64,000 bases of DNA from a virus (IMGVR_UViG_3300043172_000799:92944-156943); one strand, 5' to 3'. Shown: positions 1 through 46,960, counted from the first letter of the stretch. The notes: a model not told the origin generated them from the letters alone. Made by a program: numbers and translations.

Positions 1-373
1 AACGCAGTGCTATTGAAGTAATATCTAAAACAGTTCCTCCTGAATCTCCCATGGGATCTGCTTTGAATCCATCTCTCTCAAAATATAATTCACATTGTGT
101 CCTATTATTCTTAGTGTCGAACTCTACTTTAAACTGATAGGGGTTTTCAAAGACGTATTCTAAGGCACTTGTCACAAGATTTTCAATCCTGAAGGAGAGC
201 TTCTCCTGTGTTTGTCTTCCTACAAGAGTGAGGATATCCAGTGCCATTTCTGCATCAATATAATCAATGCCTAATCTTTGATTCTGTAACGTCTCCGCTT
301 CGTACAATCGACTTATGGAACTAAGTTGTCCTTTGTACTCATGTAGCTTATTCGTGTACTGTGTGGCTGTCAT
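1..373 (-). CDS. SbcC/Rad50-family ABC ATPase, C-terminal half; gene runs off the window start
   Basis: Reverse complement of 1..373 starts with ATG at 373..371, overlapping the TGA stop of the upstream ORF (ATGA). Translation MTATQYTNKLHEYKGQLSSISRLYEAETLQNQRLGIDYIDAEMALDILTLVGRQTQEKLSFRIENLVTSALEYVFENPYQFKVEFDTKNNRTQCELYFERDGFKADPMGDSGGTVLDITSIALR. The 'DSGGTVLDITSIALR' segment looks like an ABC signature motif region of Rad50/SbcC (compare T4 gp46 C-terminal half). Not in the ORF track because the 3' end is truncated by the window edge. Confidence 0.55.
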   Translation of the reverse strand, partial: MTATQYTNKLHEYKGQLSSISRLYEAETLQNQRLGIDYIDAEMALDILTLVGRQTQEKLSFRIENLVTSALEYVFENPYQFKVEFDTKNNRTQCELYFERDGFKADPMGDSGGTVLDITSIALR

Positions 374-717
374 ACGTCATCTACCTCTTGACAGAATTCT
401 ATGTCAAGCTCATCTTCCTCAGATACAATGATAACAGCTCCTGATTCTTCATCTGTAGAAGTCCAATCTCCTGTATTTGTATCACTATAGAAAGGATAGA
501 AACCTTCAATAAACTTATAGAAAGTTTTCTTATCATGATCATACTTAGAATCTTCATGATGAAATCCCATTGTTACATGCTCACATATATCCTCTAGATC
601 ATCGAATGTATAAAAAGTATTTTTCCAATCTCCAAGAATGAAATAATCTATAACTTTTTTTTCATCAGGAAATGTAACCTGATACTTTGCTGATATATCT
701 ACATCATATTTTTTCAT
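370..717 (-). CDS. hypothetical acidic protein
   Basis: 115-aa ORF. Its stop overlaps the downstream start (ATGA). No motif recognised. Confidence 0.4.
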   Translation of the reverse strand: MKKYDVDISAKYQVTFPDEKKVIDYFILGDWKNTFYTFDDLEDICEHVTMGFHHEDSKYDHDKKTFYKFIEGFYPFYSDTNTGDWTSTDEESGAVIIVSEEDELDIEFCQEVDDV

Positions 718-1142
718 TTATTTACCTCCGGTGGTATTGTTGCAGATTCTCTGCCAGTGAACCATTGTTTATTCCTATATGTAGAGGAGCCAACATCCTC
801 CATAATCATATAACTATCTTTATGAACTCCTACTACTTTACACCATTGTCCATCGTTCAGCAGTTCATCAAACCACCATTTAGTACAAATCTCCTCATGG
901 CTCGGTATTTTTGGTTCTGGTAGTCGATAATATAATTTACCATCAAAGGATTCTCCAGATTCTTTATGTTTCCCATATTTGAGAGTATACATTACTGCTA
1001 TGAATCTGTCTTCACTTGAAAATATGTCTATTTCAGAGTTTACTTCTCTCTCTGGTGTAATCCATGCAAATTCATATTTACCTTCTTTAAACATCTCTTT
1101 ATCGGAGAGATTATCCAACTTTACTTTTTTCCACCCATCCAT
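714..1142 (-). CDS. hypothetical protein
   Basis: 142-aa ORF, 4-nt overlap with downstream gene. Start may be an internal Met, which would remove the 32-nt overlap with rnh. Confidence 0.4.
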   Translation of the reverse strand: MDGWKKVKLDNLSDKEMFKEGKYEFAWITPEREVNSEIDIFSSEDRFIAVMYTLKYGKHKESGESFDGKLYYRLPEPKIPSHEEICTKWWFDELLNDGQWCKVVGVHKDSYMIMEDVGSSTYRNKQWFTGRESATIPPEVNK

Positions 1143-1563
1143 ATTCTTTCTCCTTTCTAAATTCCTTACTCTTCTTATCCGCTATTTTTAGCATATGAGC
1201 ACTTCTGGAAAGATGCTCTGTTATAACGTCTATCTCATTCTTTTTAAAATAATCTAAAACAAATTTTAACGCAGGATGTTTGTTTAATAACTTCTTACTT
1301 GTTTTCTTATGCTTATCAAGCATGGCAACACTAATAATAGAGTCACAATATATTCTAAAACTTGTAATACTATATTTGTCATGTATTGCCTTTACTGCGT
1401 AGTATACCCCCATAATTTCTGCGGTATTATTATTTTCTGCTTCAAATACTTCTGAAGATTCTACCACCCTTCTGTTATTATCTGGAGAATGATAGACATA
1501 TCCTGCTTGAGATTTCCTGTCCGATTGAAAAGAAGAATCCACCCAAACTTTTAAATAGCCCAA
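1111..1563 (-). CDS. rnh: ribonuclease H (RNase HI-like)
   Basis: 'LKVWVDSSFQSDRKSQAGYVY' matches the RNase HI N-terminal DG(S/A)-GxGGyG motif. 'NNTAEIMGVYYAVK' matches TNNRMEL. Downstream 'YCDS' and C-terminal 'HLSRSAH' are also present. Confidence 0.7.
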   Translation of the reverse strand: MGYLKVWVDSSFQSDRKSQAGYVYHSPDNNRRVVESSEVFEAENNNTAEIMGVYYAVKAIHDKYSITSFRIYCDSIISVAMLDKHKKTSKKLLNKHPALKFVLDYFKKNEIDVITEHLSRSAHMLKIADKKSKEFRKEKEYGWVEKSKVG

Positions 1564-1790
1564 TCGTAGGCTTCATCAAGGGTTGTAGATTTTTCTTTTA
1601 TTTCTGTTTCAATCTCTGTAATCTCTTTGTCCCTTATAGATAGCTCCTTATCAATCCCTTTAATAGTCTTACAACCAAAATCAGTATCGGCAGTTTTATA
1701 CTCAGTTTCCAACTTTGTCTCAACCTGAATCTTTTTTTTCTGGTTCTCATCAATGATTTTCTTAATTGCTAGTACATCTTTCTTTTCCAA
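1551..1790 (-). CDS. hypothetical protein (coiled-coil)
   Basis: 79-aa ORF, charged. Confidence 0.35.
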   Translation of the reverse strand: MEKKDVLAIKKIIDENQKKKIQVETKLETEYKTADTDFGCKTIKGIDKELSIRDKEITEIETEIKEKSTTLDEAYDWAI

Positions 1791-1791
1791 A

Positions 1792-2019
1792 TTATTTCTC
1801 CTTTTTCATTTCTTTAGGTGTCTCTGTAGAGGGTTTATCTTTTACCCATTCTTTAGGACCATCTTTATACACAGGATCTCTATCCTCTATCACTGCAAGT
1901 ATTAATTCCATTCCATTGTACATACCATGCATGTATGGATCAAAATCCCAGTTTCCTGGTGAGCCTTGAGTTTTTAATAGCTCTTTGGCTTGTTCAATTA
2001 TTTCATCTTTTATTTCCAT
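1792..2019 (-). CDS. hypothetical protein
   Basis: 75-aa ORF in operon context. Confidence 0.35.
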   Translation of the reverse strand: MEIKDEIIEQAKELLKTQGSPGNWDFDPYMHGMYNGMELILAVIEDRDPVYKDGPKEWVKDKPSTETPKEMKKEK

Positions 2020-2310
2020 TTAACTTTCCTTATCAATTGCTTTTATTACTATATCAAGTTTATTTCGTAGTTTTTTCATCTCAAAGATAACTTGCTCTCT
2101 GATGGTTCTTTCGTAGTCGTCATTCTCATCATCCCATCCACGATCAGATTCAGCATCAGAGTACACAATAAAATCATCAAACTTTATATAATCTTCTCCG
2201 TTGTAAGTATACGAAAATCCAAGGAGATCACAATCATCATCTGTTTCCCAAATATCTTCATGAAGCTCATCTATCAAATTTATAAGTTCTATAATTCCTT
2301 TATTCATCAT
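2020..2310 (-). CDS. hypothetical acidic protein
   Basis: 96-aa ORF, Asp/Glu-rich. Confidence 0.35.
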   Translation of the reverse strand: MMNKGIIELINLIDELHEDIWETDDDCDLLGFSYTYNGEDYIKFDDFIVYSDAESDRGWDDENDDYERTIREQVIFEMKKLRNKLDIVIKAIDKES

Positions 2311-2316
2311 TTCCTC

Positions 2317-2601
2317 CTAATACTTTGTAATTTCTACAGGAGACACATGAACTATCTCTCCGTGTTCCTTAGTAACTATAATATTATATGTTGGTATTAT
2401 TTCACCTTCAGAAACTTCTCTAAAAAGCTCAGAAAATCCAATGTATTCAAATTCCATTTGGTGATATATGTGTTCCACTCTAGTAGGGATGAAACTCAAA
2501 ATCCCCAACACTGTAGCTGTTTCCATAGTCATTAACATACTTTGGGGTAAATAGAACTTACCTATTCTTCTACTCATCAGGATACCTTTCTTTCCAACCA
2601 T
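2317..2601 (-). CDS. hypothetical protein
   Basis: 94-aa ORF. Confidence 0.3.
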   Translation of the reverse strand: MVGKKGILMSRRIGKFYLPQSMLMTMETATVLGILSFIPTRVEHIYHQMEFEYIGFSELFREVSEGEIIPTYNIIVTKEHGEIVHVSPVEITKY

Positions 2602-3229
2602 GCTGATCTAAAGATTCACCATACCATTCCCAGTTATTTACTCCACCGGCTTCAAGGCAGGAAAGAAGAAAATCTCTTTTTCTAAGATATGCTAGAGTCT
2701 CATTCTTTTTAGCACCATCCAAATTATCTATAGAATCCTGCAAGTTGCTGTATTCTGAAGTTTTGTCTGTAAGCTTAATGGTGATTATGTCCATTTCATT
2801 TTGGATATCTCCTACTGATGTTTCAGATCTTTTATATAGATCTTCTAAATCAGTTATTTGTGTGGTTAGTTCCTTACTAAGTTTCTCCCCTTCTTTCATC
2901 GAGAGTTTCATATCCCCCAGAACTAAAGAAATGTCTTCAATTTCTTTCATCTTAGATTTATATTGCTTCCCCAACTTTTCCAGTGGCTCATGTTTAAATA
3001 AAGTATACACAATAGTTGGTAATCCTTCATGCTCATAATTCATACTAATCTCATGGTGAAACCCACCATCACCAGAAACTTCCATAGCTTCCCCTTCATA
3101 TAGAGGAATAACAAGATACTTTATTCTTCTATCTATTGTTTCCATCCAATCATCTAGCAACACTTCCTGCCCATTATCTAAAAAGAAAGGACCACCATCT
3201 TCTAAATTATACCCGTCTGTAGTTTTCAA
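2570..3229 (-). CDS. hypothetical protein
   Basis: 219-aa ORF, coiled-coil middle, stop overlaps downstream start. Confidence 0.4.
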   Translation of the reverse strand: MKTTDGYNLEDGGPFFLDNGQEVLLDDWMETIDRRIKYLVIPLYEGEAMEVSGDGGFHHEISMNYEHEGLPTIVYTLFKHEPLEKLGKQYKSKMKEIEDISLVLGDMKLSMKEGEKLSKELTTQITDLEDLYKRSETSVGDIQNEMDIITIKLTDKTSEYSNLQDSIDNLDGAKKNETLAYLRKRDFLLSCLEAGGVNNWEWYGESLDQHGWKERYPDE

Positions 3230-3468
3230 TTTTTCCTCCTAAGTTTCTTTCGCATATTTCTTCTTTTATTAGTATCCTTTTTTGCTTTTTCCAGATCAGC
3301 TTTAGTTTCCTCGTACATACGTATAATAGTATTCTCACGTATCTTCTTTTCCATTTTGGTTTTCATCATCATATTTCTTTGTTCAACCAGAATATCTTTC
3401 TCAAAATCAGTAGGATCATCTCCATTTATGATTTTCATTAATCTATCTGGTGGTATTATCCTATTCAA
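3226..3468 (-). CDS. hypothetical basic protein
   Basis: 80-aa Lys/Arg-rich ORF. The track start is a TTG preceded by AGGGGGA. Confidence 0.35.
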   Translation of the reverse strand: MNRIIPPDRLMKIINGDDPTDFEKDILVEQRNMMMKTKMEKKIRENTIIRMYEETKADLEKAKKDTNKRRNMRKKLRRKN

Positions 3469-3487
3469 TATTGTCCCCCTAGAATTA

Positions 3488-3525
3488 TCTGTTATTACCG
3501 ATAATTATCGTTTATTACCAATAAC
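3488..3525 (-). promoter_or_regulatory. palindromic operator-like element between gp47-like and downstream gene
   Basis: Perfect 12-bp palindrome 'CGATAATTATCG' (3499..3510) flanked by near-direct repeats 'TTATTACCGATAA' / 'TTATTACCAATAA'. Confidence 0.3.
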
Positions 3526-3569
3526 TTAATATATTTAGTGCATGATTATCTATTTTTTAATACATGAAC

Positions 3570-4514
3570 TTATTCAATATTTCCCTCCAAGGCTTTGTTT
3601 ATGAACTTCTCCATATTAGGATTAATCATAAGATCCTCTTCCTTGTTGTACTTATTTTCAGCAATGTATGCTTCCACATTCTTCTCAAAAGAATCAGTCA
3701 ATTCGTACTCCTCATCCATAGTTAGTACGAAACTATCAATTCTTTCTTCTCTTTCTTTCTCAATAACTAAGTGTTTATCAGATATTACACCATCTTCAAT
3801 AGGAAGGTATAATGGTTCAAACTCTTTTGTTTCAGTATCAATCAACCATACCCTAGGCTTGAAATCAATTTGGATAGCTGTTCTTCTCATCAAAGATCCG
3901 GTATTAATTAACGTACATCCTTCATAAGAATAGGTAAAGGGCTTGTGATGGTCTGCGGTAATAATGAAAGAGTAGTCTTTATAAAATTCATGAACAATAT
4001 CTTCTGCAACTAACCCCCCAATAAGAGTGTTCTCTCGCTCATCCACAAATCCATGATATAAACCAATATGAACATTCCCATCAGATCTCTCCTCCTCAGA
4101 AATATGAGATATCTCTTCTCCCCAATTGAAACCATGTACCATAACATTAGAGTCAGGGATTAAGTATGGTTCTTTCCATACATGTATAATATTACCATAT
4201 TTGATAGGAACACTAATTATAGATTCATCTAGGTAATCTAATGATTTATTTTTTAAACAATGGTTTCCTGCTATCGCAATCAATCCATCTATATTTTTTC
4301 TAATGAGATCAATGGTAGCAATTGCCTCAGATACACTCTGTCCAACAGCTCTGTCTACTATATCTCCTGCATCAATTCTTTTAGCATTGTATTTTTCTGT
4401 TAAATGGTTAACATACTCCAAAGCTGTAACTTGTGCTTGATAATAATTGTCTGTTCTGCAAATAGGAGTCTTTGACCCATCTAAGTGCATATCTCCACTA
4501 GCGAGTAGTTTCAT
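3570..4514 (-). CDS. Mre11/SbcD-like metallophosphoesterase nuclease (T4 gp47-like)
   Basis: Calcineurin-like phosphoesterase motifs: 'GDMHLD', 'AGDIVDR', 'AGNHC', 'YHGF', 'ITADHH'. N-terminus resembles T4 gp47 (MK..L.GD.HLG). Confidence 0.75.
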   Translation of the reverse strand: MKLLASGDMHLDGSKTPICRTDNYYQAQVTALEYVNHLTEKYNAKRIDAGDIVDRAVGQSVSEAIATIDLIRKNIDGLIAIAGNHCLKNKSLDYLDESIISVPIKYGNIIHVWKEPYLIPDSNVMVHGFNWGEEISHISEEERSDGNVHIGLYHGFVDERENTLIGGLVAEDIVHEFYKDYSFIITADHHKPFTYSYEGCTLINTGSLMRRTAIQIDFKPRVWLIDTETKEFEPLYLPIEDGVISDKHLVIEKEREERIDSFVLTMDEEYELTDSFEKNVEAYIAENKYNKEEDLMINPNMEKFINKALEGNIE

Positions 4515-5269
4515 GGTTTCTCCTCCTGATTCAGACTTGTAGGGGATTCTTTGTAATATATTTTCTCAAATTCCTGTCTAGCCTTACATGCCCCATTAAA
4601 ATCTGTAAATGAGCCTATATGATGTCGTTTTTTATTTATGCTTATTTGAGCAATCCATCTATTGTTTTTAGAACTCCAGTGAACACCTTTAATCCCAGAA
4701 GTATTATTTTTATATACTTTTGTATTTATGGCATTCTGAGATTTGTCACATATCCGCAAGTTCAATGTGCGATTATTTAAAGGATTTCTATCCCTGTGAT
4801 CCACCAAAGTACCTTCATCTGCGTCTAATATTATTCTATGCATACGCAATAATTTTCCGTCTTCTCTGGTATCTGCATATCCACCATTACAATACCAACA
4901 ATAATTTCGCACTTTAATGTAATCTTCCTTATCAATAATTGTATATCCATGAGCTTCATTGAAGAAAAATATTTTAACATAATCATCACAATCTTCTATT
5001 GGGTTTGTTTTAGAGTTAGCAGATCCTGATTCCTTCGCTGTTTCTATTCTGTAGCACCCACAACTTGTGGTATGTCCAGATACTAGATTTTGTTTTATAG
5101 CACAAATTACACTTTCAGTCGGACAAGAACATTTACAAAAATATTTCCATTGAGATGGTTTTACCCTATCGCCTTCTTTATCAATTTTACTATTTTCATC
5201 TACCCCAACGACAGTGAGCCTCCCAAACTCCATACCTTTCTTTAGATGTTTAGGGTATTTTTGTTTCAT
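4511..5269 (-). CDS. free-standing HNH-AP2 homing endonuclease
   Basis: N-terminal Cys cluster ('CKCSCP...SCGC'). HNH_3 motif 'VDHRDRNPLNNRTLNLRICDKSQN'. C-terminal AP2 domain 'SGIKGVHWSSKNNRWIAQISINKKRHHIGSF'. Overlaps both neighbours by 4 nt. Paralogous to 12781..13329, 22858..23628 and 27933..28721. Confidence 0.8.
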   Translation of the reverse strand: MKQKYPKHLKKGMEFGRLTVVGVDENSKIDKEGDRVKPSQWKYFCKCSCPTESVICAIKQNLVSGHTTSCGCYRIETAKESGSANSKTNPIEDCDDYVKIFFFNEAHGYTIIDKEDYIKVRNYCWYCNGGYADTREDGKLLRMHRIILDADEGTLVDHRDRNPLNNRTLNLRICDKSQNAINTKVYKNNTSGIKGVHWSSKNNRWIAQISINKKRHHIGSFTDFNGACKARQEFEKIYYKESPTSLNQEEKP

Positions 5270-5850
5270 CTACTCCCCTCCCCTTTTAAAAACCTCTTCG
5301 CTTGATAAATTATATTAGGAGTAATTCCCACATAAGGATCAATCCAAAAATAATTATCCTTTTGCCACAGTAGCATATCACTATCATCATCAAAGATCAC
5401 ATATTTTATTTCCCTATCAAATCCTTTAGCATAGTGCGTAAGCCAACAAGCTATTTCCATCCCTCTAGGTGGAGTGTAGTTCCAATCTGCAAGTCTAAAA
5501 GAGGGTGTTTTCCCAATAATGTTTCCTTTGAATCCTTTTAGTTTGAATGTATTTTGCAATTCCTCTATAGTTCTGCCTTGTCTCCAAGTAGAAGATATAA
5601 TAAAGTAGAGATTAGGAACATCTTCCGCTAACGTATTTAAGAATTCCACACGCTCTGAATCAATATCTGAAAGCATTATAGGTATTCCATCCCCAACTTC
5701 AGGATATAACACCTCTGAGGTGTTTCGTCTTTCATGTTGTCTCATCTCCTTATAGTATAGCTGATGATTCAATACACCGTCAATATCTAAAAATACTAAT
5801 TTTGTATCTTTAGTGAACTTAAAATTATCTATAATGAACTCACCCATCAT
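5266..5850 (-). CDS. HAD-superfamily phosphatase (nucleotidase / 3'-phosphatase-like)
   Basis: HAD motif I 'FLDIDGVLN', motif II 'ISSTW', motif IV 'FDDDSD'. Confidence 0.6.
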   Translation of the reverse strand: MMGEFIIDNFKFTKDTKLVFLDIDGVLNHQLYYKEMRQHERRNTSEVLYPEVGDGIPIMLSDIDSERVEFLNTLAEDVPNLYFIISSTWRQGRTIEELQNTFKLKGFKGNIIGKTPSFRLADWNYTPPRGMEIACWLTHYAKGFDREIKYVIFDDDSDMLLWQKDNYFWIDPYVGITPNIIYQAKRFLKGEGSR

Positions 5851-6524
5851 TTCCCCTTAAACAGCGTATCATTACGATAAACAACAACTTGATTCTGTGG
5901 ACTTAAAATCTGCACATCATGCCCACAAGTTACAATACTAATATTATTTTGTTCTAACTGCTGTGTACTTAATAATTGATGATTAGGCATACAACATGGG
6001 TTAGTATAAACATATTTCCAATTAGGGAAGGCTTTCATTACTTCCATAGTGTGTACATGTGAATGAACTAACACAATGGCAAGATGTTTCTTTTTTTGTG
6101 TTCCCATAGCATACCAACTATCCATAGCAGACATATTCTTTTCATAATCTTGCCATGTAGATTTATATGCATTAAAATCTACAACATCATACCGTTCCAT
6201 CCAATTATTCATAAATTTAAGATTGGTTTGTGGATCAATAGACACATTAACCGATTTACCCATGAAAGTAAAGAGTGCTCCGGTACGAGCTGTACTTCCA
6301 TCCCCAATATGAAGATTAAAAAAATCATCTAATTTCAATCCATCTTTATACACGGCATTTGCTACATGATGAAATGCCCCATAACTTTCTGTAATCTCTT
6401 TAATGGGATTTGCAGTATGTCCAAATAACGTACTGAGTTCTTCATAGCAATTTCTCTTTAATAAACTATTTGCATATTTCATTAACACACCTCCTTTTTC
6501 ATTTCTCCACCACATACAGGGCAA
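5847..6524 (-). CDS. hypothetical protein
   Basis: 225-aa ORF. No ABC signature, so it is not the missing SbcC C-terminal half. His-rich 'VHSHVHT' and 'TCGHD'. Confidence 0.4.
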   Translation of the reverse strand: MPCMWWRNEKGGVLMKYANSLLKRNCYEELSTLFGHTANPIKEITESYGAFHHVANAVYKDGLKLDDFFNLHIGDGSTARTGALFTFMGKSVNVSIDPQTNLKFMNNWMERYDVVDFNAYKSTWQDYEKNMSAMDSWYAMGTQKKKHLAIVLVHSHVHTMEVMKAFPNWKYVYTNPCCMPNHQLLSTQQLEQNNISIVTCGHDVQILSPQNQVVVYRNDTLFKGK

Positions 6525-7705
6525 GCTTCATCCTTGATCTTCTCAAAATCCTCTTCAATAGATTTATCATAATCTCTCAGATCATCTTCCCAATCTTCAA
6601 TACTAACAGAGATACCTTCAAGTGTTTGATACTCTTTCTTAAGAGTATCTAGCTCATCATAAAGAGTAAGGAGTTCTGCCACATTTCCTTTATACTTATC
6701 AACATCTGTATAGGTTTTGAGTTCTGCTTCATAAGCTTCAATATTTTCAATGCAATCCAGTCTCTTGTTATACTCATCTACCTTTTTTGATTTTAGATCA
6801 AACAGAGGCAGGAGTTTTTCTACTAGATCTTTATTCTTGACAGTCCTATCAATCTCTTTTAATTCTCTTTCTTTAGTGGAGATACTATCTTTAATATCAA
6901 AAAGATCAGTTCTCTGTTCAATTTTCTCATCGAGAGCATTGTGTAATTTTAGCACATTCTCTACTAAAGTGGAATTGGAAGTGATATCCTCTATTGACTT
7001 TAATTCTTTAGAAAGATTCTCCAAATTCTCCCTAATACCAACTAGATGCTCATGCCCCTCTTTATTCTCTATCAGTTCTTTTTCTAATTCCAGTAACTCA
7101 TTAACATCTTTTCCCATAGCTTCAATAAAATCGAATTTGGCAATTTCTTCACTGTACTTCTTAAGATTAATATCAGAAGCATCTTTTTCCTTTTTAATCT
7201 TTCTAATAATCTTTCCGGCATTGGAAATAGATTCATCAATGATCTCTAGATTCACCATCTTATTGAGTGTCTTAGCTACCGTAGATGAGTTGTCATTAAG
7301 CATAAAATGTGTTTCGAACTGACTCTGGGTATTGACCTCATTTATATTTAGGATGCGCTGTACGTCTTCTGGAACGCTCTGATTGAAGTTCTGAATAGGA
7401 TCATTATTATTGATGATGTACATATTCTCAGTACGGGTACGCACCCTCTTGATACTATCTCCTTCAAATGTTCTAATTTCTACAGAACACGTTTCTCCTT
7501 TCTTTATCTTTCCTTTATCATCTTGTATCCAGTGGGAAGCATAATTATTTCCTTGATAGTTTTTGAATACAAAAGCCATAGCGTGTTGTAGATTACTTTT
7601 TCCAGCATCTCCTGATGCTGTTATTGTGTTCAATCCATCTATAAAAGAAAATACTTCATGCTTGTACGGACCATAGTTTGTAAGTTCAACTTCCTTTATT
7701 TTCAT
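6482..7705 (-). CDS. SbcC/Rad50-like ATPase, N-terminal half ending at the zinc hook (T4 gp46-like)
   Basis: N-terminal Walker A 'TITASGDAGKSNLQHAMAFVF'. Then about 300 aa of Glu/Lys-rich coiled coil. Ends 'CPVCGGEMKKEVC', a Rad50-type CxxC hook. No signature, Walker B or H-loop. Confidence 0.7.
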   Translation of the reverse strand: MKIKEVELTNYGPYKHEVFSFIDGLNTITASGDAGKSNLQHAMAFVFKNYQGNNYASHWIQDDKGKIKKGETCSVEIRTFEGDSIKRVRTRTENMYIINNNDPIQNFNQSVPEDVQRILNINEVNTQSQFETHFMLNDNSSTVAKTLNKMVNLEIIDESISNAGKIIRKIKKEKDASDINLKKYSEEIAKFDFIEAMGKDVNELLELEKELIENKEGHEHLVGIRENLENLSKELKSIEDITSNSTLVENVLKLHNALDEKIEQRTDLFDIKDSISTKERELKEIDRTVKNKDLVEKLLPLFDLKSKKVDEYNKRLDCIENIEAYEAELKTYTDVDKYKGNVAELLTLYDELDTLKKEYQTLEGISVSIEDWEDDLRDYDKSIEEDFEKIKDEACPVCGGEMKKEVC

Positions 7706-8202
7706 TTGTAAGCTCCTTGTAATTCCTTGAGTATTCCCCGTAATACTTCAGTTCTCTCTTCCCATTGCTCTACTGTTTCGTGTTTAGGGATAGTCATCAA
7801 ATCTGTTTGAACATCAGCACAACCAGCACTGTAGTACTGAAAATATACATCGGCTTGTCTGTGATACACCAGATCAAGATTATACTTTTCTCTATCTATC
7901 ATAAACCTATCAACGAATCTTTCCCACTCCTCAACTGTTTCGTGTTTTGATGATTGTAACTGGTTAACTTCTTTTAATAGCCTATCAACCTGTTCCCTGT
8001 TTAAAATAAACTCATCCTTGAGATCTTTTGAAGCCAACATAAACCCGAGAGCTAAAATTACGCTCTGATCCCCTTCTCTCAATTTCTCATTCACTATTAT
8101 CCTCCAAGTCTGAGACGGTGGTGAGTTCCCACCAATTAGATTCAGATAAATAACAATCCTGCTCAGTGTCTTTGTCGTACAATTCATAAATAACATAATC
8201 AT
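7702..8202 (-). CDS. hypothetical protein with two 'KHETVE(E/Q)WE' repeats
   Basis: Internal repeats 'SKHETVEEWERF' and 'PKHETVEQWEER'. The true start is probably an internal Met, since the track ORF overlaps its upstream neighbour by 116 nt. Confidence 0.4.
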   Translation of the reverse strand: MIMLFMNCTTKTLSRIVIYLNLIGGNSPPSQTWRIIVNEKLREGDQSVILALGFMLASKDLKDEFILNREQVDRLLKEVNQLQSSKHETVEEWERFVDRFMIDREKYNLDLVYHRQADVYFQYYSAGCADVQTDLMTIPKHETVEQWEERTEVLRGILKELQGAYK

Positions 8203-8665
8203 TATCCATTACTCTTATCAATTGAGCTAAACGCCCTTTAACGGCTCCATGTTTAATTTTTACAATCGGTGACAATTTCGCGATTTCATCGGTTATTTTG
8301 ATTTCTGATATTGGTTTCCAAGACATAGGCAAATTGCCGTGTTTTTTCTGTATTAAGAACTTGTTTATATCCCATCCCCCATTATCAAGATCAGGATTAA
8401 AGCAGAATAAATCTACACCATCATCCAAAGCCACAAAAGTCTCACCACTCTTTTTAATAATTGGCTGTTCAGGTTCTGGTTTGAATTGGGGAATATCAGA
8501 CTGACAGCCTTTACAAAAAACTTTACCATTGCTTTGTCCAAAAGAATTTGTATCTGCTATAGGTTCAAAATCGTTGCACGGCTTAAACTTCCACTCAGTT
8601 GGTGAACCTTTGGCCTTGGTTCCAATCCATTCACACTTACCCATTTGAAGCCTCTTCCAACACAA
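8087..8665 (-). CDS. hypothetical Cys-containing protein
   Basis: 192-aa ORF. 'CKGCQSD' and other Cys pairs. Confidence 0.35.
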   Translation of the reverse strand: MCWKRLQMGKCEWIGTKAKGSPTEWKFKPCNDFEPIADTNSFGQSNGKVFCKGCQSDIPQFKPEPEQPIIKKSGETFVALDDGVDLFCFNPDLDNGGWDINKFLIQKKHGNLPMSWKPISEIKITDEIAKLSPIVKIKHGAVKGRLAQLIRVMDNDYVIYELYDKDTEQDCYLSESNWWELTTVSDLEDNSE

Positions 8666-9074
8666 CTGTATTATTGAAGAAGTCCTTAAAGAATTTATAA
8701 TCTTTTGAATAGATGAAATGATCTACACTAAACTTCTCCAAGTATTCATCCTTGTATTGATCCAATTCTCCGTAGGATTCTATAGTAGGTTTCCCACCCC
8801 CATATATTAAAGTATTCAAAGAGGTTATGGTTACAATGTTGTAATTCCACCATAGCATTTTCTCCACAAATATTTCATCTACACATTCATAGATGTCTTG
8901 CTTGTGATTACTCAGATTTGTATTGATCATATCGTTTGATACACATCTAAATAATTCGGTAAAACGAAACTTGTCTATGAAGAAGTCCATATTATTAAAT
9001 GGACTTCTTGACAACACCTCAAACTTTACATCAATCTCATTTATCTCATTTTCTTTTTTCTTTACAAATAGCAT
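8637..9074 (-). CDS. hypothetical protein
   Basis: 145-aa ORF. Confidence 0.35.
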   Translation of the reverse strand: MLFVKKKENEINEIDVKFEVLSRSPFNNMDFFIDKFRFTELFRCVSNDMINTNLSNHKQDIYECVDEIFVEKMLWWNYNIVTITSLNTLIYGGGKPTIESYGELDQYKDEYLEKFSVDHFIYSKDYKFFKDFFNNTVVLEEASNG

Positions 9075-9095
9075 ATTTTCTCCTAAGTTTTTAAT

Positions 9096-9851
9096 TTATT
9101 TCTTACGCAGTACACTGTTGGTGAAGTACAATTCCACATCCATTTCAGTAAGTATTTCTTCTTCCACATATCTTTCGAATAATGCCTCATAAAAAAGGAT
9201 CTCTCTTACCCATGCGAAGTTCTCTTTATTGCAGGGTGTATTGGATGCCCCATAATACCCTAGACCGAATAAAGAGGCACATCTTAAGATACCCCATGCT
9301 TCACTATTTAACTTTTCCATTCTTTTCTCTGATATAGGATCTTGAACACAACCATGATTGTCTTTATAGATATAGCCAATTTCCTGTTTGTAATTATGTT
9401 TTACAAAAGAGAGAATATCATCTAGGGTTTTCTTCTTAGAATTTCTGTTGATTTTACTTGCAACGAATCCATCTGATCTGTACCCATACATTGAGTCTGC
9501 ATCAAAATACTTTGCTGACAGTCCCGTGAAATTATCATATGCCCATCTAATAGACATTCCATGGGGTAGGCTTTCTAAAAAGTAAATCTCCCTCTTATGT
9601 TCTTTACTCTTAAAGATGCTAGAATTGAACTCATCATGTATCCACTCAACAAGATCTTCTTTTTTAAGCCAATACCCATCCATGTAATCTTGGTGTCTAG
9701 GGTTCAACCAAATTCTACCATCTTTTTCAGTGGAGAGGGCGTGAAATGTGTATGGGGAAGTGACATGCTCCCCATACATTTGTTGCCATTCAGTATCTTT
9801 CTTATGTAGCTTTTCCTTTAGAGAAGCAAAAGTACTCTTTTTAATAAACAT
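9096..9851 (-). CDS. hypothetical protein
   Basis: 251-aa ORF. Strong RBS (GGAGG 5 nt upstream of ATG at 9851). Confidence 0.45.
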   Translation of the reverse strand: MFIKKSTFASLKEKLHKKDTEWQQMYGEHVTSPYTFHALSTEKDGRIWLNPRHQDYMDGYWLKKEDLVEWIHDEFNSSIFKSKEHKREIYFLESLPHGMSIRWAYDNFTGLSAKYFDADSMYGYRSDGFVASKINRNSKKKTLDDILSFVKHNYKQEIGYIYKDNHGCVQDPISEKRMEKLNSEAWGILRCASLFGLGYYGASNTPCNKENFAWVREILFYEALFERYVEEEILTEMDVELYFTNSVLRKK

Positions 9852-9880
9852 CTATTCCTCCAAATATTCAATCTACAATA

Positions 9881-9909
9881 AACATAACACATCACGCATC
9901 ATTTGTCAA
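9881..9909 (-). promoter_or_regulatory. putative promoter (TTGACA-17-TATGTT)
   Basis: Minus strand TTGACA 9909..9904. Followed by GGAGG RBS and ATG at 9851. Confidence 0.35.
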
Positions 9910-9923
9910 TATACAAAATAAAA

Positions 9924-9973
9924 AAGTCAGAGTCCAATATGCTTATGAGACAAAGCACATCTTCTTCTGACTT
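9924..9973 (-). terminator. imperfect 9-bp stem with large loop followed by T-run (weak terminator candidate)
   Basis: 'aagtcagag' ... 'cttctgactt', then a T-run on the minus strand at 9924..9910 (outside the stem span). Confidence 0.3.
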
Positions 9974-9974
9974 A

Positions 9975-10607
9975 CTATTTACTTAACATTTTAATATAAC
10001 ACTCTTTTCTTTTAGCTTTGTTGGATATCTCTGAAGGAGTATACCCATTGTGAGAAAGCTCACGGGACTGATCCTTCACTGATTGTTTCATCTTTGCAAT
10101 AATAGCTTTATCCAATGAAGCCTCTTCCCATGACATCCCTGTACGTTCCATATGTGTAATTATCTTATGGGCATCTTTTGATATCAATCTCATATTATCA
10201 GGAGAAGTCAGTAATCTAAATAGAAATACACAAGCTTCCAGAGGAGAATTACAACTTCCTGCTGGAGAAATATGATCCACTTCTCCTTCTGTTTTTTTGG
10301 TTAATTCCCCTGTAACTTCACATATAAAGTACTTTTGTGTCTTTTGCTTCCCTGCATTCTTACCCGATTTAATCAGGACTGGATTTCCTTGCCCATCTGT
10401 CAGTGGGTGATCAAAACACTGCTTCTTTAAGTAGTCATTCTTAGGAACCCACTTTCTTGACCAGATTCCCCTTAACTGCCCTCTAAGCCATGAGAAGTAC
10501 TGTGATTGGGTCTTCCAATTAGAGGACCATTCCCATGGCTTGTGTTTATTAATTTCTACAAGAAGCTGTTCTACTAGTATAGCTTCTTCAGGATTATTCT
10601 TGGTCAC
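9975..10607 (-). CDS. putative HNH-family endonuclease
   Basis: 'CEVTG...GEVDHISPAG...NMRLIS...AHKIITH' fits the C...DH...N...H pattern of HNH nucleases. Confidence 0.4.
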   Translation of the reverse strand: MTKNNPEEAILVEQLLVEINKHKPWEWSSNWKTQSQYFSWLRGQLRGIWSRKWVPKNDYLKKQCFDHPLTDGQGNPVLIKSGKNAGKQKTQKYFICEVTGELTKKTEGEVDHISPAGSCNSPLEACVFLFRLLTSPDNMRLISKDAHKIITHMERTGMSWEEASLDKAIIAKMKQSVKDQSRELSHNGYTPSEISNKAKRKECYIKMLSK

Positions 10608-12793: not shown

Positions 12794-13329
12794 ATCCTAG
12801 TTTCTCCTCTGCTCTTTTTATACGAAAATTCATTATGAAGTTCTTCCTCAGCGTTTTGTCTTGCTTTTATAGCATCTTCTTTATGTGCAAATAACCCTAG
12901 CTCTTTTCTTTTATCATCTTTGTTTATATACGCTCTCCATTTCTTAGTCAATTTATGCCAAGATACACCTACATGTTTAGAAGTATTATTAGATTGAATT
13001 TCTTTATTCATTTGGTTTTGACCATTGGTTGCAGAACGTAAATTAATCTTTCTATTATTAAGCCCATCACCGTCTCTATGCTCTGGAATAAACCCTTTCT
13101 CTACAGTGTGAATTACTTGGTGCATTTTTATACGAGTTTTATTAAAGTTCCCCTTAGTACGGGCTACAGCGTAAAATAACTTCTTTGAGGTGGTGGGCAC
13201 TCTATACCAACAGTAGTCTTTTACTTTAAAATAATCTTCTTTGTCAATGATTGTAAATCCATGGTCTTTATTGAAGAAGAATATTTTAATATAGCCATCA
13301 TAGACTTCTATGTTATTTACTTTAGACAT
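12781..13329 (-). CDS. HNH-AP2 homing endonuclease paralogue (short form lacking the N-terminal Cys domain)
   Basis: 'YIKIFFFNKDHGFTIIDKEDYFKVKDYCWY', HNH 'EHRDGDGLNNRKINLRSATNGQNQMN', AP2 'VGVSWHKLTKKWRAYINKDDKRKELGLF'. Confidence 0.75.
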   Translation of the reverse strand: MSKVNNIEVYDGYIKIFFFNKDHGFTIIDKEDYFKVKDYCWYRVPTTSKKLFYAVARTKGNFNKTRIKMHQVIHTVEKGFIPEHRDGDGLNNRKINLRSATNGQNQMNKEIQSNNTSKHVGVSWHKLTKKWRAYINKDDKRKELGLFAHKEDAIKARQNAEEELHNEFSYKKSRGETRICQQ

Positions 13330-13379
13330 AATTTCTCCAAAAAATAAGGGAGAGATTTCTCCCTCCCATTAAAATCTAT

Positions 13380-14453
13380 CTAGTTATGAAGTTCCTCATA
13401 CTTTTTATCACACAATGAGTAAAACTCACAATCCTTAACACAAGTTTTGGTATCTATATCCTGTCCAAAAGTCAATTCCATTGGGCATTCAGGATCTGAA
13501 GGCTCTTCTTTAGCTCTTCTAGCTCGTCTCCGTGTGGAAGGTGTATCATCTTCAGAGTCAGTTTTCTCACTACGTCTAGAAGAACGTCCTGATGTTTCTT
13601 CCTTCTCCTCTTTTTTATCACCACGATCACGTTTAGATGTAGAAGGTTTATCCTCTTTATCGACACCATCTTTATCACTACCGTCATCATCATCATCATT
13701 ACCCCAGAAAGCATTAGATATCTCATCATAAGAAGAAATCTTAATCATAGTATCAAGTCTAGGAGAAGTATCAATATCCTCATCATTGTACTGGTTTTCC
13801 ATATCCTCAAAGTCAAAAGATTTTACTTCACCACAATACTCTTTACCATTGTATTTAGACTTAGAGAATTCAAATCCAATTGAGAATCCATCTTCAGAGA
13901 TATCACCAAGAAGATATTGTCTCTTTTTAGATTTTCTCTTAATCTGGTCTTTTAGATTACGGGTGAACCACCCATAGGAGTACTCAAAGATTTTCATCTT
14001 ATTGTTATCTTCTAAATCCACCACATTGTAGAAGGACTTTCTCTTTGGTCGAAGGGCATATAGCTTTTCATCATTCCACTCAAGGTCTTCATCTTCTTTA
14101 AGACGGTCATGTTCCTCACAGATAGGGCAGTCCTTGTCATAATTTTTCTTAGGACATACCATGTTCTTTTTAGAAGGGCCAACTTTAGTATGGACATATA
14201 GATCAAGGCGATCATCTTCCATGAAATCTGGATCTGCATCTTTCAGAGTGGCATATTTAGGATGCTTCTTTGATGTCACAACATATGGTATAATGTCAAA
14301 AAGATAATCTGTCTCTAACTCCGGCTTAACCCATGTGATATCAGGATACTCAGATGTGTCCAGCACTCTATAGCCCCCACCACTTTCTTCCTTCATGTCT
14401 CTTTCTTGTTTCTTTGCTAATCTTGCTCTTCTGTCATTACTTACGCTTGCCAT
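13380..14453 (-). CDS. putative zinc-binding ssDNA-binding protein (gp32-like?) with acidic/SR-rich C-terminus
   Basis: Sits immediately upstream of the recombinase. 'CPKKNYDKDCPICEEH' (Cx9CxxC..H) recalls the T4 gp32 zinc site. Poly-Asp stretch 'DDDDDGSDKDG'. C-terminal Cys cluster. Overall similarity to gp32 not established. Confidence 0.35.
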   Translation of the reverse strand: MASVSNDRRARLAKKQERDMKEESGGGYRVLDTSEYPDITWVKPELETDYLFDIIPYVVTSKKHPKYATLKDADPDFMEDDRLDLYVHTKVGPSKKNMVCPKKNYDKDCPICEEHDRLKEDEDLEWNDEKLYALRPKRKSFYNVVDLEDNNKMKIFEYSYGWFTRNLKDQIKRKSKKRQYLLGDISEDGFSIGFEFSKSKYNGKEYCGEVKSFDFEDMENQYNDEDIDTSPRLDTMIKISSYDEISNAFWGNDDDDDGSDKDGVDKEDKPSTSKRDRGDKKEEKEETSGRSSRRSEKTDSEDDTPSTRRRARRAKEEPSDPECPMELTFGQDIDTKTCVKDCEFYSLCDKKYEELHN

Positions 14454-44164: not shown

Positions 44165-46960
44165 TTATGCACTTTCTTCATAGTCCCATTCATATCCGTA
44201 ACTCCTTATCAATTCTGCCTCTTTCTTTTCATCATCCCAATCTTTATCAGCATAAATATGATCATACCAATTCCCATTATCATAGTATTCTACATCCGCT
44301 TTCATGGTATGTATAACCCATCTGTGTTTCTTCATTAGATATGTAGTCATATAATAAACAACTTTCTCACGCAAACCCTTCCCTATCCATTCAGATAGAT
44401 CTTCTGGTGTATCAAAGTATATAGCATCATGAATCTGGGCTACTATTTTTGTCTTTAACTTGTTTTTATCTATATATTCTTGTATTTTAGTTTGTGCCTG
44501 AAGAATAAGATGAAAAGCAGGTCCTTGTATCACGTAATTGTTACACTGATTTCTATTCATAACTGTAGTTGAATAGAAGCCTGTTGCTAATTTTGTTCTC
44601 ATATTTTTTACATAATTTTTCCAGTTATCTTTTCTCCATTGTCCAAACTCTCCATAATTATCCTCCCAGTACCAATCACACACAGTTTTTATATGCTCTG
44701 TAAATTTCTTTTCTGTATCTATTTTAGACTCTTTGAAATATTGTTTGTGGTATTCCTGTAGATGTTTATTGTACACTGTTGGACCTATACTGAGATATAT
44801 ATCTCCAAATTGTAATGAAAAGGACATACCATTTTTACCTATATACCTAAGATCTTTCCACATATGAGCTTCCGTGTCATTTTTAGCATCATAATTTCCC
44901 ATTTCTTTTTTAATCTCTATCATGTCTTTAGATACTTGAGACAATTCCCCCATAAACAATTTTTCAGCTAAGCCAAGATGCATATCTAATCCTTCCTCTA
45001 ATTGTTTGAGCATGGTTTTATCATGATGTACAGAACACCCTACACCCACTTCTAAACTACTTGCATCTGCTCCTATGATTCTGTTTCCTTCTGAAGACAT
45101 TAAGAAAGACTTTGACATCTCTGCTGCAAATGGATCATGTTGACTTTGATTCTGCCAGTTTGGATTTTGAGAAGATCCTCTATAACTTTTTGGTATATTC
45201 AAAGAGAACATAGGGTATATGTGCCCTTCTACCATTTCTCTTCTAACACCTTTCAAATCTTGTGTTAATTTTATCAATTTAGCAAGCTCCAAGTACATTT
45301 TCAAAAACTCAGATAACGGAGCTATGTCTTTTAGCTCTTTAGCTTCTGTTGAATATTGATCCCCTCCTGTTTTTTTTGTTTTAGGTAATCTCAAAATATT
45401 AAAAAGAAAATCCGACAATTGTTTGCCAGAACTATAGTTGAACTCTGTATCTCTATTCTCATACCACTTATCAATTTCTGGACAATTTTTAATATTGTAT
45501 TGCAATTTGACTATTTTCTTTTCTAATATCATTTCATTTTTTATCAATCTTTCTTCATCTATTCTAAACCCATTCTCCATCATTCTACAAAAAGATAACA
45601 TACCATCATGAAATAAGTGAAAACCCTTCATCAAATGTGGATCACCTTCTATTTGTGGCCTCTGCCATTCATAAAGATGATATGTAAAATGGCTATCTTT
45701 TGCACAATATAAACACATATCCTTTAAATCCATAAGATGCATTGTATTGAAGCCATTTGCACCATATAATGCTTTCTCTTCTTTTGTAGATTTAATATAA
45801 CTATCTGCCATACTATCATATCCTAGAATTCCAAATCTCATATATGTCTGTACTTTTAAACCTGTGATATTAGATCTATTATCCAAAATGTGAGAAACTA
45901 GCATTGTGTCCCATACAAAGTTTTCAGATCTGTATCCAAATATGGAAATACTAGCTTGATACTCATATGCCATATTGTGTGATATTTTTCCAACCCTATT
46001 AGATTGAAGCAATCTCTTTAGATTATCCATAAATGGTTTGTTGTCATAGAATATAGGAAAACCATAAGATACAATACCATTACTAAAGGACACACAATAT
46101 ATTTTATGTCCTTTTTTTTGTAATTTTATACCACTTGCCTCATAGTCAAAAGATACTAAACTTTCCTTTTGCATACATTTCAGAACATGAGTAGCATCCT
46201 CCTCATGCATTACGGTACAACACTCTGACTCATATGTATCTTTTCTAAATTCTTTTTTTGATAATATATTTTTTAAATATTTTATAAAGAATTTTTCCTT
46301 TAATATAAAATCATCATACTCACATAATTTTTCATTCTTCCATAAAACAATTTTATCATCAGAACTTTTCCATTTCCCCCATTTTTTCAAGGAGTCTCTT
46401 CTTTTTTTAAGAGGCTGGAGTACAAAATTAATGTCATAATTTGGCATAACTAGCTTATGCAATTCTTGATCTGGTATTATAGTTCCATAGAACTTTTCTG
46501 TAGGTTTAAGGCTCATCCTTCCATTACATCTATCCCCTAAAAGAATCTCTAAAGGAAGTTCTCCTAGTGTTATTATTTTTTTAGGATTTAATTGCTTGAT
46601 TGTTTTATGCAATTTGTATTTGCAACTATTTATAATCTGAGTACTAGGTCCTCCCCAGTCCTCAGAAAAACATCTCACAGAAGGCACATACCAGCAATCT
46701 CTTTCTAAGTCAATATTAATTTTCTGTAAAGCATGTTTTAAATATTTCCCTTGTATATTACTTAAAAGTTTTCCAGATTGGTCTTCCCTTTCACTTGGAG
46801 GTGCTCCCACAATTAAGATGGATTTATCTCCGTTACCTACCACTCCTAGTTTTGGATTTTGGCAGTCCATATAAGCTTTACAACTTTCACAGCCTCCAAT
46901 TTTCTTTTTATTAACTTTCTTTCTAACTATTTCTTTTTCTATTTCAAAGAATCCTCGCAT
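44165..46960 (-). CDS. family A DNA polymerase with N-terminal family-4 UDG-like domain
   Basis: N-terminus 'GCESCKAYMDC...ILIVGAPPSEREDQSGKLL...SVRCF...IITLGELPLEIL' fits the UDG family 4 layout (GCxxC...GEAPGxxED..G.pF...N.vkCrPP). Motif A-like 'GADASSLEVGVGCSVHHD'. Motif B-like 'RYIGKNGMSFSLQFG'. Motif C 'VAQIHDAIYFD'. Confidence 0.8.
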   Translation of the reverse strand: MRGFFEIEKEIVRKKVNKKKIGGCESCKAYMDCQNPKLGVVGNGDKSILIVGAPPSEREDQSGKLLSNIQGKYLKHALQKINIDLERDCWYVPSVRCFSEDWGGPSTQIINSCKYKLHKTIKQLNPKKIITLGELPLEILLGDRCNGRMSLKPTEKFYGTIIPDQELHKLVMPNYDINFVLQPLKKRRDSLKKWGKWKSSDDKIVLWKNEKLCEYDDFILKEKFFIKYLKNILSKKEFRKDTYESECCTVMHEEDATHVLKCMQKESLVSFDYEASGIKLQKKGHKIYCVSFSNGIVSYGFPIFYDNKPFMDNLKRLLQSNRVGKISHNMAYEYQASISIFGYRSENFVWDTMLVSHILDNRSNITGLKVQTYMRFGILGYDSMADSYIKSTKEEKALYGANGFNTMHLMDLKDMCLYCAKDSHFTYHLYEWQRPQIEGDPHLMKGFHLFHDGMLSFCRMMENGFRIDEERLIKNEMILEKKIVKLQYNIKNCPEIDKWYENRDTEFNYSSGKQLSDFLFNILRLPKTKKTGGDQYSTEAKELKDIAPLSEFLKMYLELAKLIKLTQDLKGVRREMVEGHIYPMFSLNIPKSYRGSSQNPNWQNQSQHDPFAAEMSKSFLMSSEGNRIIGADASSLEVGVGCSVHHDKTMLKQLEEGLDMHLGLAEKLFMGELSQVSKDMIEIKKEMGNYDAKNDTEAHMWKDLRYIGKNGMSFSLQFGDIYLSIGPTVYNKHLQEYHKQYFKESKIDTEKKFTEHIKTVCDWYWEDNYGEFGQWRKDNWKNYVKNMRTKLATGFYSTTVMNRNQCNNYVIQGPAFHLILQAQTKIQEYIDKNKLKTKIVAQIHDAIYFDTPEDLSEWIGKGLREKVVYYMTTYLMKKHRWVIHTMKADVEYYDNGNWYDHIYADKDWDDEKKEAELIRSYGYEWDYEESA

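Follow-up and report, generated by a model that had tools for sequence, protein, structure and literature searches.

The first 10 kb of a 64,000-nucleotide stretch of DNA from an uncultured virus (IMGVR_UViG_3300043172_000799:92944-156943; the whole stretch is called the window below, and positions are counted from its first letter) carry two separate open reading frames (ORFs) that resemble the N-terminal and C-terminal parts of a Rad50/SbcC-type ATPase, together with genes for an Mre11/SbcD-like nuclease and a small helical protein (Table 1). Every gene in positions 1..10000 lies on the minus strand, and the gene for the N-terminal part (N-half) is transcribed first, toward position 1; its TAA stop codon overlaps the ATG of the next gene. 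The gene for the C-terminal part (C-half) is 6.1 kb away and continues past the edge of the window. ORF calling places 13 ORFs between the two halves, namely the four named in a preliminary description of this DNA and nine more.

Table 1. Features of the split ATPase module and other genes of the window, in the order of transcription. The second column numbers the ORFs between the two halves; identities are to the counterparts at the related locus L010.
Feature	ORF	Position	Strand	Identity to L010	Remarks
Rad50/SbcC N-half, 407 aa		6482..7705	-	51%	ATPase lobe I, single-strand helical arm and terminal CPVC
Walker A (P-loop) ASGDAGKS, N-half residues 30-37		7595..7618	-		G35 and K36 invariant in 62 homologues
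N-half arm, residues 153-390		6536..7249	-		Stalk helix and four tandem helical units of ~47 aa
Arm units		7129..6977, 6973..6836, 6832..6713, 6691..6536	-		Recognised by periodicity of the hydrophobic pattern
CPVC, putative zinc-hook motif, N-half residues 395-398		6512..6523	-		C395 and C398 invariant, P396 in at least 90%, in 62 homologues
Conserved protein, no family assigned	1	5847..6482	-	57%	Listed as 225 aa; ~211 aa from the ATG at 6482
HAD_SAK_2 phosphatase-like protein	2	5266..5850	-		Pfam PF18143, E 1.4e-20; accessory insert
HNH-AP2 homing endonuclease	3	4511..5269	-		Pfam HNH_3 and AP2; phrog_99 at 1.5e-41
Mre11/SbcD-like nuclease, 314 aa	4	3570..4514	-	73%	D8, H10, D51, N84, H85 and H190 present
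80-aa ORF	5		-
219-aa protein	6	2570..3229	-		T7 gp5.9-like RecBCD-inhibitor domain, PF25708, E 4.9e-11; coiled coil
94-aa ORF	7		-
96-aa ORF	8		-
75-aa ORF	9		-
~80-aa helix-loop-helix protein, 79 aa	10	1551..1790	-	58%	TTG start; conserved with the module
RNase H	11		-	74%
142-aa ORF	12		-
115-aa ORF	13		-
Rad50/SbcC C-half, first 124 of 203 aa		1..373	-	59%	~60-aa N-terminal helix and start of lobe II
Family A DNA polymerase		44165..46960	-		N-terminal uracil-DNA-glycosylase-superfamily domain

Two lobes of an ATPase and their companion proteins

Besides the Walker A motif, the N-half possesses a Q-loop glutamine (Q129) that is, like G35 and K36, invariant across the 62 aligned homologues, a diverse set. 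The CPxC motif at the distal end of its arm, also invariant in this set, represents a putative zinc hook. The C-terminal end of the protein reads ...ACPVCGGEMKKEVC, directly followed by the stop codon, which comes nine residues past CPVC and seven past CPVCGG; the distance of eight residues after CPVCGG given in the preliminary description was off by one. Matches in Pfam, the Protein Data Bank (PDB) and NCBIfam span the N-lobe and the arm only, in agreement with the earlier statement that the polypeptide carries none of the C-lobe motifs. A profile of the N-half family matched M. jannaschii Rad50 (3aux, residues 3-220) over residues 1-214 with an E-value of 1.7e-12, with RecF and SMC proteins ranking far below. 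In the Rad50 models of NCBIfam the N-half occupies positions 1-396 of 878 (PRK03918) and 174-436 of 872 (Rad50_Sulf), and its CPVC aligns to the hook position of the latter, at about 436. The protein is assigned to phrog_16465. An AlphaFold2 (AF2) model of the N-half, run as a monomer on a shallow alignment of 13 sequences, reached a mean predicted local distance difference test score (pLDDT) of 82.7. In a fold search with this full model, the head resembled the N-lobes of Rad50, SMC and RecF proteins; nothing beyond the head was matched, and the arm gave no informative match.

The C-half begins with MTATQY from an ATG at position 373, which overlaps the stop codon of the preceding gene, as the coupled ATGA start recognised earlier implies. 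The portion encoded within the window includes DSGGTVLDITSIALR and the signature DSGGT (46..32); Walker B, the D-loop and the H-loop lie beyond the window edge. The sequence could be followed past position 1 on the 102-kb Logan contig SRR11832402_6080, which encodes the Mre11-like protein of the window residue for residue, as does a 13.6-kb JGI contig. On the Logan contig (L004:14142-14753) the complete C-half is 203 aa long and contains both a Walker B motif (PVFVLDEPF) and an H-loop (ITSTHED), so the preliminary concern that the completed gene might lack these elements does not apply. D142 and E143 are invariant in the alignment of the C-half family, throughout which the D-loop ends in Ser, not Asp. 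The C-half profile, covered over positions 3-201, matched the Rad50 C-lobes of 3aux (172-369) and of the engineered P. furiosus C-fragment 3qkr_B (4-177) with E-values of 2.9e-13 and ~3e-13, and the NCBIfam alignment places the protein at Rad50 model positions 728-868 of 872. It belongs to phrog_15167. No second homologue of the N-half, the C-half or the Mre11-like protein was found at E<=10 in the 64-kb window or at positions 21,514-101,737 of the 102,160 of the contig.

The residues listed in Table 1 for the Mre11-like nuclease are invariant among seven aligned homologues, and a profile built from these seven syntenic proteins matches Mre11 of P. furiosus (1ii7, E 1.5e-10) and SbcD (7dog). 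The C-terminal region, where Mre11 proteins carry a helix-loop-helix for binding the base of the Rad50 coil, is also conserved, with F262 invariant. Motif III of the window protein reads GNHC, compared with GNHD in all six other aligned homologues; its remaining metal-binding and catalytic residues are intact.

A further companion is the ~80-aa helix-loop-helix protein. A hidden Markov model (HMM) was built from small ORFs located directly upstream of C-half genes in IMG/VR loci, with the window and L010 excluded; it matches the window ORF 1790..1551 at E 2.4e-8 and its L010 counterpart at E 3.5e-10, and weakly matches 77-78-aa ORFs of two Bacillus phages. A relationship of this protein to T4 gp46.1 or gp46.2 was considered and rejected, as the comparison gave no similarity. 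The idea that a conserved loop Cys of the protein makes up for zinc ligands missing after CPxC was also dropped, since there was no strict correlation and 13 viral and 29 Bacillota loci have neither.

Distribution of the split in phages and Bacillota

All 62 aligned N-half homologues end 2-22 aa past the CPxC motif. A word-indexed search yielded 148 relatives, at least 120 of them 294-492 aa long, and an exhaustive profile search recovered 7,037 N-half clusters (50% identity) at E<=1e-30, the best 150 of which are all 303-418 aa long. Relatives of the C-half measure 181-212 aa; the single exception, a fragment of 124 aa, comes from a contig of 530 bp. Synteny in viruses was assessed in 80 IMG/VR loci retrieved with a narrow C-half alignment. 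The order N-half, Mre11, C-half on one strand is found in 75 of them, with a median distance of 1.7 kb and a maximum of 4.3 kb from the N-half stop to the C-half start, and the two halves never form one ORF; four of the five remaining loci have less than 4 kb of upstream flank. The Mre11-like gene is syntenic in all 80 viral loci and in all 80 loci examined in Bacillota. The small helical ORF occurs in every viral locus and, as a 60-120-aa helical ORF following the N-half (matched by size and position; phrog_18563), in 70 of 78 Bacillota loci.

The same organisation can be recognised in sequenced Bacillus phages. In phBC6A51, PHBA67-T and vB_BboS-125, a protein of 471-518 aa annotated as 'SbcC' ends after CPLC, and the C-half is a protein of 211 aa, labelled 'chromosome segregation ATPase', whose gene lies two or three genes further on. 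In vB_BboS-125 (L002), the family HMM strongly matches (E 5.7e-82) an Mre11-like ORF at 9109-10224, where the GenBank record shows no gene. Gp8 of phage 0305phi8-36 (L001, 4978-7287) is an Mre11 fused to an N-half that ends after CPTC, while Mre11 is unfused in the window, and the C-half is gp5 (8304-9014), encoded three genes downstream and again labelled 'chromosome segregation ATPase'. Mre11::Rad50 fusions, including Mimivirus R555 and 0305phi8-36 gp8, were described by Yoshida et al. 2011 (PMC3175470), who reported that one P-loop NTPase segment 'was not observed' in 0305phi8-36. The missing segment is gp5, which is encoded separately.

A scan of one genome per species identified 274 Bacillota genomes with an N-half form of ~480 aa, from which 80 loci were kept for the synteny counts. 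The order Mre11, N-half, C-half is present in 62 of these loci. The gene recA is located within 6 kb upstream in 59 loci, and rny downstream in 53. On the Alkalihalophilus chromosome (L008, 7016-10368; also L093-L172) the arrangement is pgsA-cinA-recA-[Mre11, N-half, small protein, C-half]-rny. The setting of the module in Bacillota is chromosomal, with no prophage context.

Wherever both halves were found they are separate ORFs (75/75 viral and 62/62 Bacillota loci), and comparison with related phages, which had been suggested as a way to find an intact gene 46, revealed none in the 75 viral loci. Because the stop after CPxC, the size of the C-half and the synteny recur throughout the family, the split is a family-wide trait and not a local accident.

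Proposed assembly of the complex and alternative readings

Rad50, SbcC and SMC proteins are understood to consist of one chain each, in which a folded-back antiparallel coiled coil connects the two ATPase lobes. Judged from sequence, the module most probably encodes a naturally split Mre11-Rad50 (SbcCD-type) complex, in which each protomer of the ATP-binding cassette (ABC) ATPase is made of two polypeptides. Such a two-polypeptide enzyme was one of the options offered in the preliminary description, and it is favoured by the complementarity of the ABC halves, each of which finds its best match in the equivalent half of archaeal Rad50 (E 1.7e-12 for the N-half, 2.9e-13 for the C-half), and by their co-occurrence as separate ORFs in 75/80 viral loci, 62/80 Bacillota loci and four sequenced Bacillus phages. 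The N-half would supply Walker A, the Q-loop, the ascending arm and the CPxC hook, and the C-half a helix of ~60 aa pairing with the base of the arm, followed by the signature, Walker B, the D-loop and the H-loop. The N-half and C-half would assemble physically, and two such protomers may sandwich two ATP molecules on a dimer of the Mre11-like protein, as in canonical Rad50. The ~80-aa helical protein, from its conservation with the module, is likely to be a fourth subunit. By processing DNA ends, the complex could serve the recombination-replication genes of the phage, which are RecA/UvsX-like and gp32-like.

The Walker A, Q-loop, signature, Walker B and H-loop motifs are those of Rad50-SbcC proteins acting with Mre11-SbcD (P. 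furiosus, M. jannaschii and E. coli SbcCD), and archaeal and bacterial Rad50-SbcC also share the CPxCG hook motif, which is CPVCG in P. furiosus, and an adjacent Mre11-type nuclease with an intact metal site. These proteins provide the best PDB and NCBIfam matches for both halves of the window, although the scores are far below the curated NCBIfam cut-offs for Rad50/SbcC. Unlike Rad50-SbcC, the present ATPase consists of two polypeptides with the putative hook at the C-terminus of the N-half instead of mid-protein; ~230 aa of descending coil are absent, the arm is built of 47-aa units, and an extra protein of ~80 aa is present. When N- and C-terminal fragments of P. furiosus Rad50 are expressed together, they assemble into a catalytically active domain. 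In engineered two-chain Rad50 constructs (1F2T/1F2U, 1II8 and 3QKR; chains A and B), N- and C-fragments with coil stubs make up one ATPase domain, and the C-half of the window aligns end to end with chain B. However, those chains are laboratory truncations without arm or hook, whereas here the split is natural and the N-half keeps a full-length arm and the putative hook. The T4 proteins gp46 and gp47 have the role in phage recombination and replication that is proposed here, and small ORFs also lie between the ATPase and nuclease genes of T4, but the 560 aa of gp46 form one chain that carries its hook in the middle of the coil. The alignment to gp46 proposed in the preliminary description gave hhalign E-values of 8.7e-5 for the N-lobe and 0.015 for Walker B; gp46 is a remote relative and proved too distant to serve as a reference.

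ABC ATPases of defence systems (Lamassu LmuB, Gabija GajA, Septu/retron PtuA and PARIS AriA) have the same ABC/SMC-like head and, in some cases, coiled-coil inserts. PADLOC models gave weak partial matches only (LmuB 2.6e-6 for the N-half of the window; mad3 4.4e-8), with no partner genes present; the genes around the module are those for RecA, SSB, RNase H and Mre11 in the phage and, in Bacillota, recA and rny. In PHROGs the halves are assigned to separate families labelled 'exonuclease' and 'ATPase', and neither NCBIfam nor PADLOC contains a dedicated model for the split family. In the literature on split, truncated or bipartite SbcC/Rad50 no description was found; an earlier mention within a classification of ABC ATPases is possible.

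The architecture of the arm bears on how the protomers may be held together. The hydrophobic pattern of the arm has its top autocorrelation at lag 47, and five of the six pairwise alignments between units gave z-scores of 2.4-5.4 (0.86 for 193-243 versus 292-331); within each unit hydrophobic residues are spaced 3-4 throughout. AF2 predicted helices at 153-189, 193-243, 245-290, 292-331 and 339-390, with breaks at the unit borders, and modelled the arm alone as a nearly continuous helix (141 residues unbroken; predicted template modelling score, pTM, 0.27), which is extended and not a bundle. The ascending strand measures ~240 aa, the sole descending helix is the ~60-aa one in the C-half, and ~230 aa of the descending arm (Rad50 model positions ~440-670) have no counterpart. 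N-half lengths fall in classes ~48 aa apart: phage proteins have roughly 305, 352 or 402 aa, those of Bacillota roughly 431, 480, 528 or 575 aa. The 575-aa N-half of Herbivorax sp. (L158) contains three nearly identical tandem 47-aa units (LNKTDNVNRGIELVNTTNQKTLRYEK...), a repetition that points to a recent duplication of units. Apart from two examples with a tail at the C-terminus, the C-half stays at 197-225 aa across the loci, and the length of the small protein holds at about 80 aa.

No partner of constant length would be able to match an arm that is extended by single units, but two N-half arms could pair with each other whatever their number of units. Since the number of units varies and the C-half and the small protein are fixed, the likeliest partner of an N-half arm would be another N-half arm. 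Most family members have only two Cys after the arm, and for this reason a parallel pair sharing one zinc would be the most economical arrangement. Taken from these lengths and models, a plausible corollary, put forward tentatively, is that two N-half arms pair in parallel and their terminal CPxC motifs share one zinc.

A two-polypeptide enzyme might also be built with an arm that is not self-paired, but folds back on itself or pairs with the ~80-aa protein or with an unlinked coiled-coil protein. All characterised Rad50 and SMC arms are antiparallel two-strand coils; the small helical protein always accompanies the module, and there is a resemblance between its N-terminal helix (ELKGQ) and the beginning of the C-half (EQQKG). 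The 219-aa coiled-coil protein is a further potential partner encoded in the window, but it is not conserved in L010. Variation of the arm by single units, over N-half lengths of about 300 to 575 aa, is difficult to reconcile with partners of constant length, and the AF2 models show no fold-back. A zigzag of 2-7 helices is disfavoured because each added unit would flip the hook to the opposite end according to parity. An arm without self-pairing is less likely than not.

If the arms do pair in parallel, the family could be regarded, with due reserve, as a distinct SMC-like class with two-polypeptide protomers, parallel-paired arms of 47-aa modules, a Zn(Cys)4 site at the tip and an ~80-aa subunit, serving phages and recA-linked repair in Bacillota. 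Arm length and hook are considered to carry signals between the apex and the head. A large natural family, with thousands of clusters in phages and, beside recA, in Bacillota, in which the return strand is lacking and the head is distributed over two proteins, is a minimal system in which the need for arm and hook can be examined. It suggests that many Bacillota possess an uncharacterised end-processing complex linked to recA, and it corrects the current annotation, in which one half is a truncated 'SbcC' and the other a 'chromosome segregation ATPase' with no connection to it.

Several observations weigh against the naturally split complex or against the parallel arms. The viral locus L025 (IMG/VR 3300037486_000321, 1-10600) encodes Mre11, the small protein and the C-half without an N-half; it is the sole viral locus with a full 10-kb upstream flank from which the N-half is missing, and unrelated genes stand in its place. 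The main misfit is formed by 11 Bacillota loci with full flanks and no C-half within 6 kb. The halves are therefore not adjacent in every case. Many Bacillota tails have additional His residues following CPxC, and these could allow a single chain to complete a zinc site. Finally, the arm model rests on the logic of length variation and on monomer AF2, and a partner strand may be encoded elsewhere.

The 11 Bacillota loci, among them that of Acetivibrio mesophilus (L144, 5012-7700), retain Mre11, the N-half and the small protein; their C-half may be encoded elsewhere or absent. They fit a reading in which the two genes belong to different systems, either as partial SMC-like proteins with other partners or with the N-half acting alone as a non-catalytic zinc-hook tether. 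Two different SMC-like proteins were the other option of the preliminary description. However, the ABC ATPase site is incomplete in both products, and the window and the 80 kb of the contig searched (21,514-101,737) yielded no other partner. The halves co-occur on one strand in 75 of the 76 viral loci with enough flank, and the invariant P-loop Lys and Q-loop Gln of the N-halves would be pointless without a Walker B partner. The option was rejected as very improbable.

Least probable of all is the reading that a homing endonuclease or other insertions recently disrupted an intact gene resembling gene 46 and left fragments that may be decaying. Two HNH-AP2 genes do flank parts of the module, and the 6.1 kb between the halves exceed the largest N-to-C distance in the 75 viral loci. 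Termination after CPxC and a C-half of ~200 aa are nevertheless seen throughout the family, the catalytic residues are invariant, and L010 is split without the HNH-AP2 or HAD genes.

Mobile elements and neighbouring genes

The second HNH-AP2 gene lies directly after the C-half gene (L004 14750-15730), and its product is 41% identical to that of the gene at 4511..5269. Both paralogues have Cys-rich repeats at the N-terminus, and each borders a gene of the module, the one at 4511..5269 the Mre11 gene and the second the C-half gene. The related locus L010 lacks the HAD gene and both HNH-AP2 genes, yet keeps the split, and for this reason the mobile elements are not its cause. The origin by mobile-element insertion suggested in the preliminary description is therefore unsupported, also in view of the CPxC-stop in 62 of 62 N-halves. 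The HNH-AP2 gene at 4511..5269 is a recent insert outside the enzyme; endonucleases and other accessory genes have lengthened the module, and the split is older than they are. A search of window positions 1..9000 against Rfam at E<=1 detected no intron, and no intein motifs were found in the module. A split intein was rejected, as the N-half ends nine aa after CPVC and the C-half starts with MTATQY, leaving no room for intein fragments.

The gene at 5847..6482, directly after the N-half, gave no significant family match. Its product is 56% identical to that of the gene following the N-half in L012, and the proteins of the window, L010 and L012 carry the motif IGDGSTARTG. At the variable position held in the window by the gp5.9-like gene, L010 has a Gad2-like (anti-Gabija) gene (12819-13820). 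This gap in the operon has the appearance of a hot spot for anti-defence genes.

GenBank phages gave no near-identity DNA match to window positions 1..8000, and an exact 50-mer scan of IMG/VR gave no match. The phage is far from known phages, its family A DNA polymerase being ~22% identical to the best phage matches. The fusion of this polymerase with a uracil-DNA-glycosylase-superfamily domain also occurs in related contigs (L009), the best cultured relatives again being only ~22% identical.

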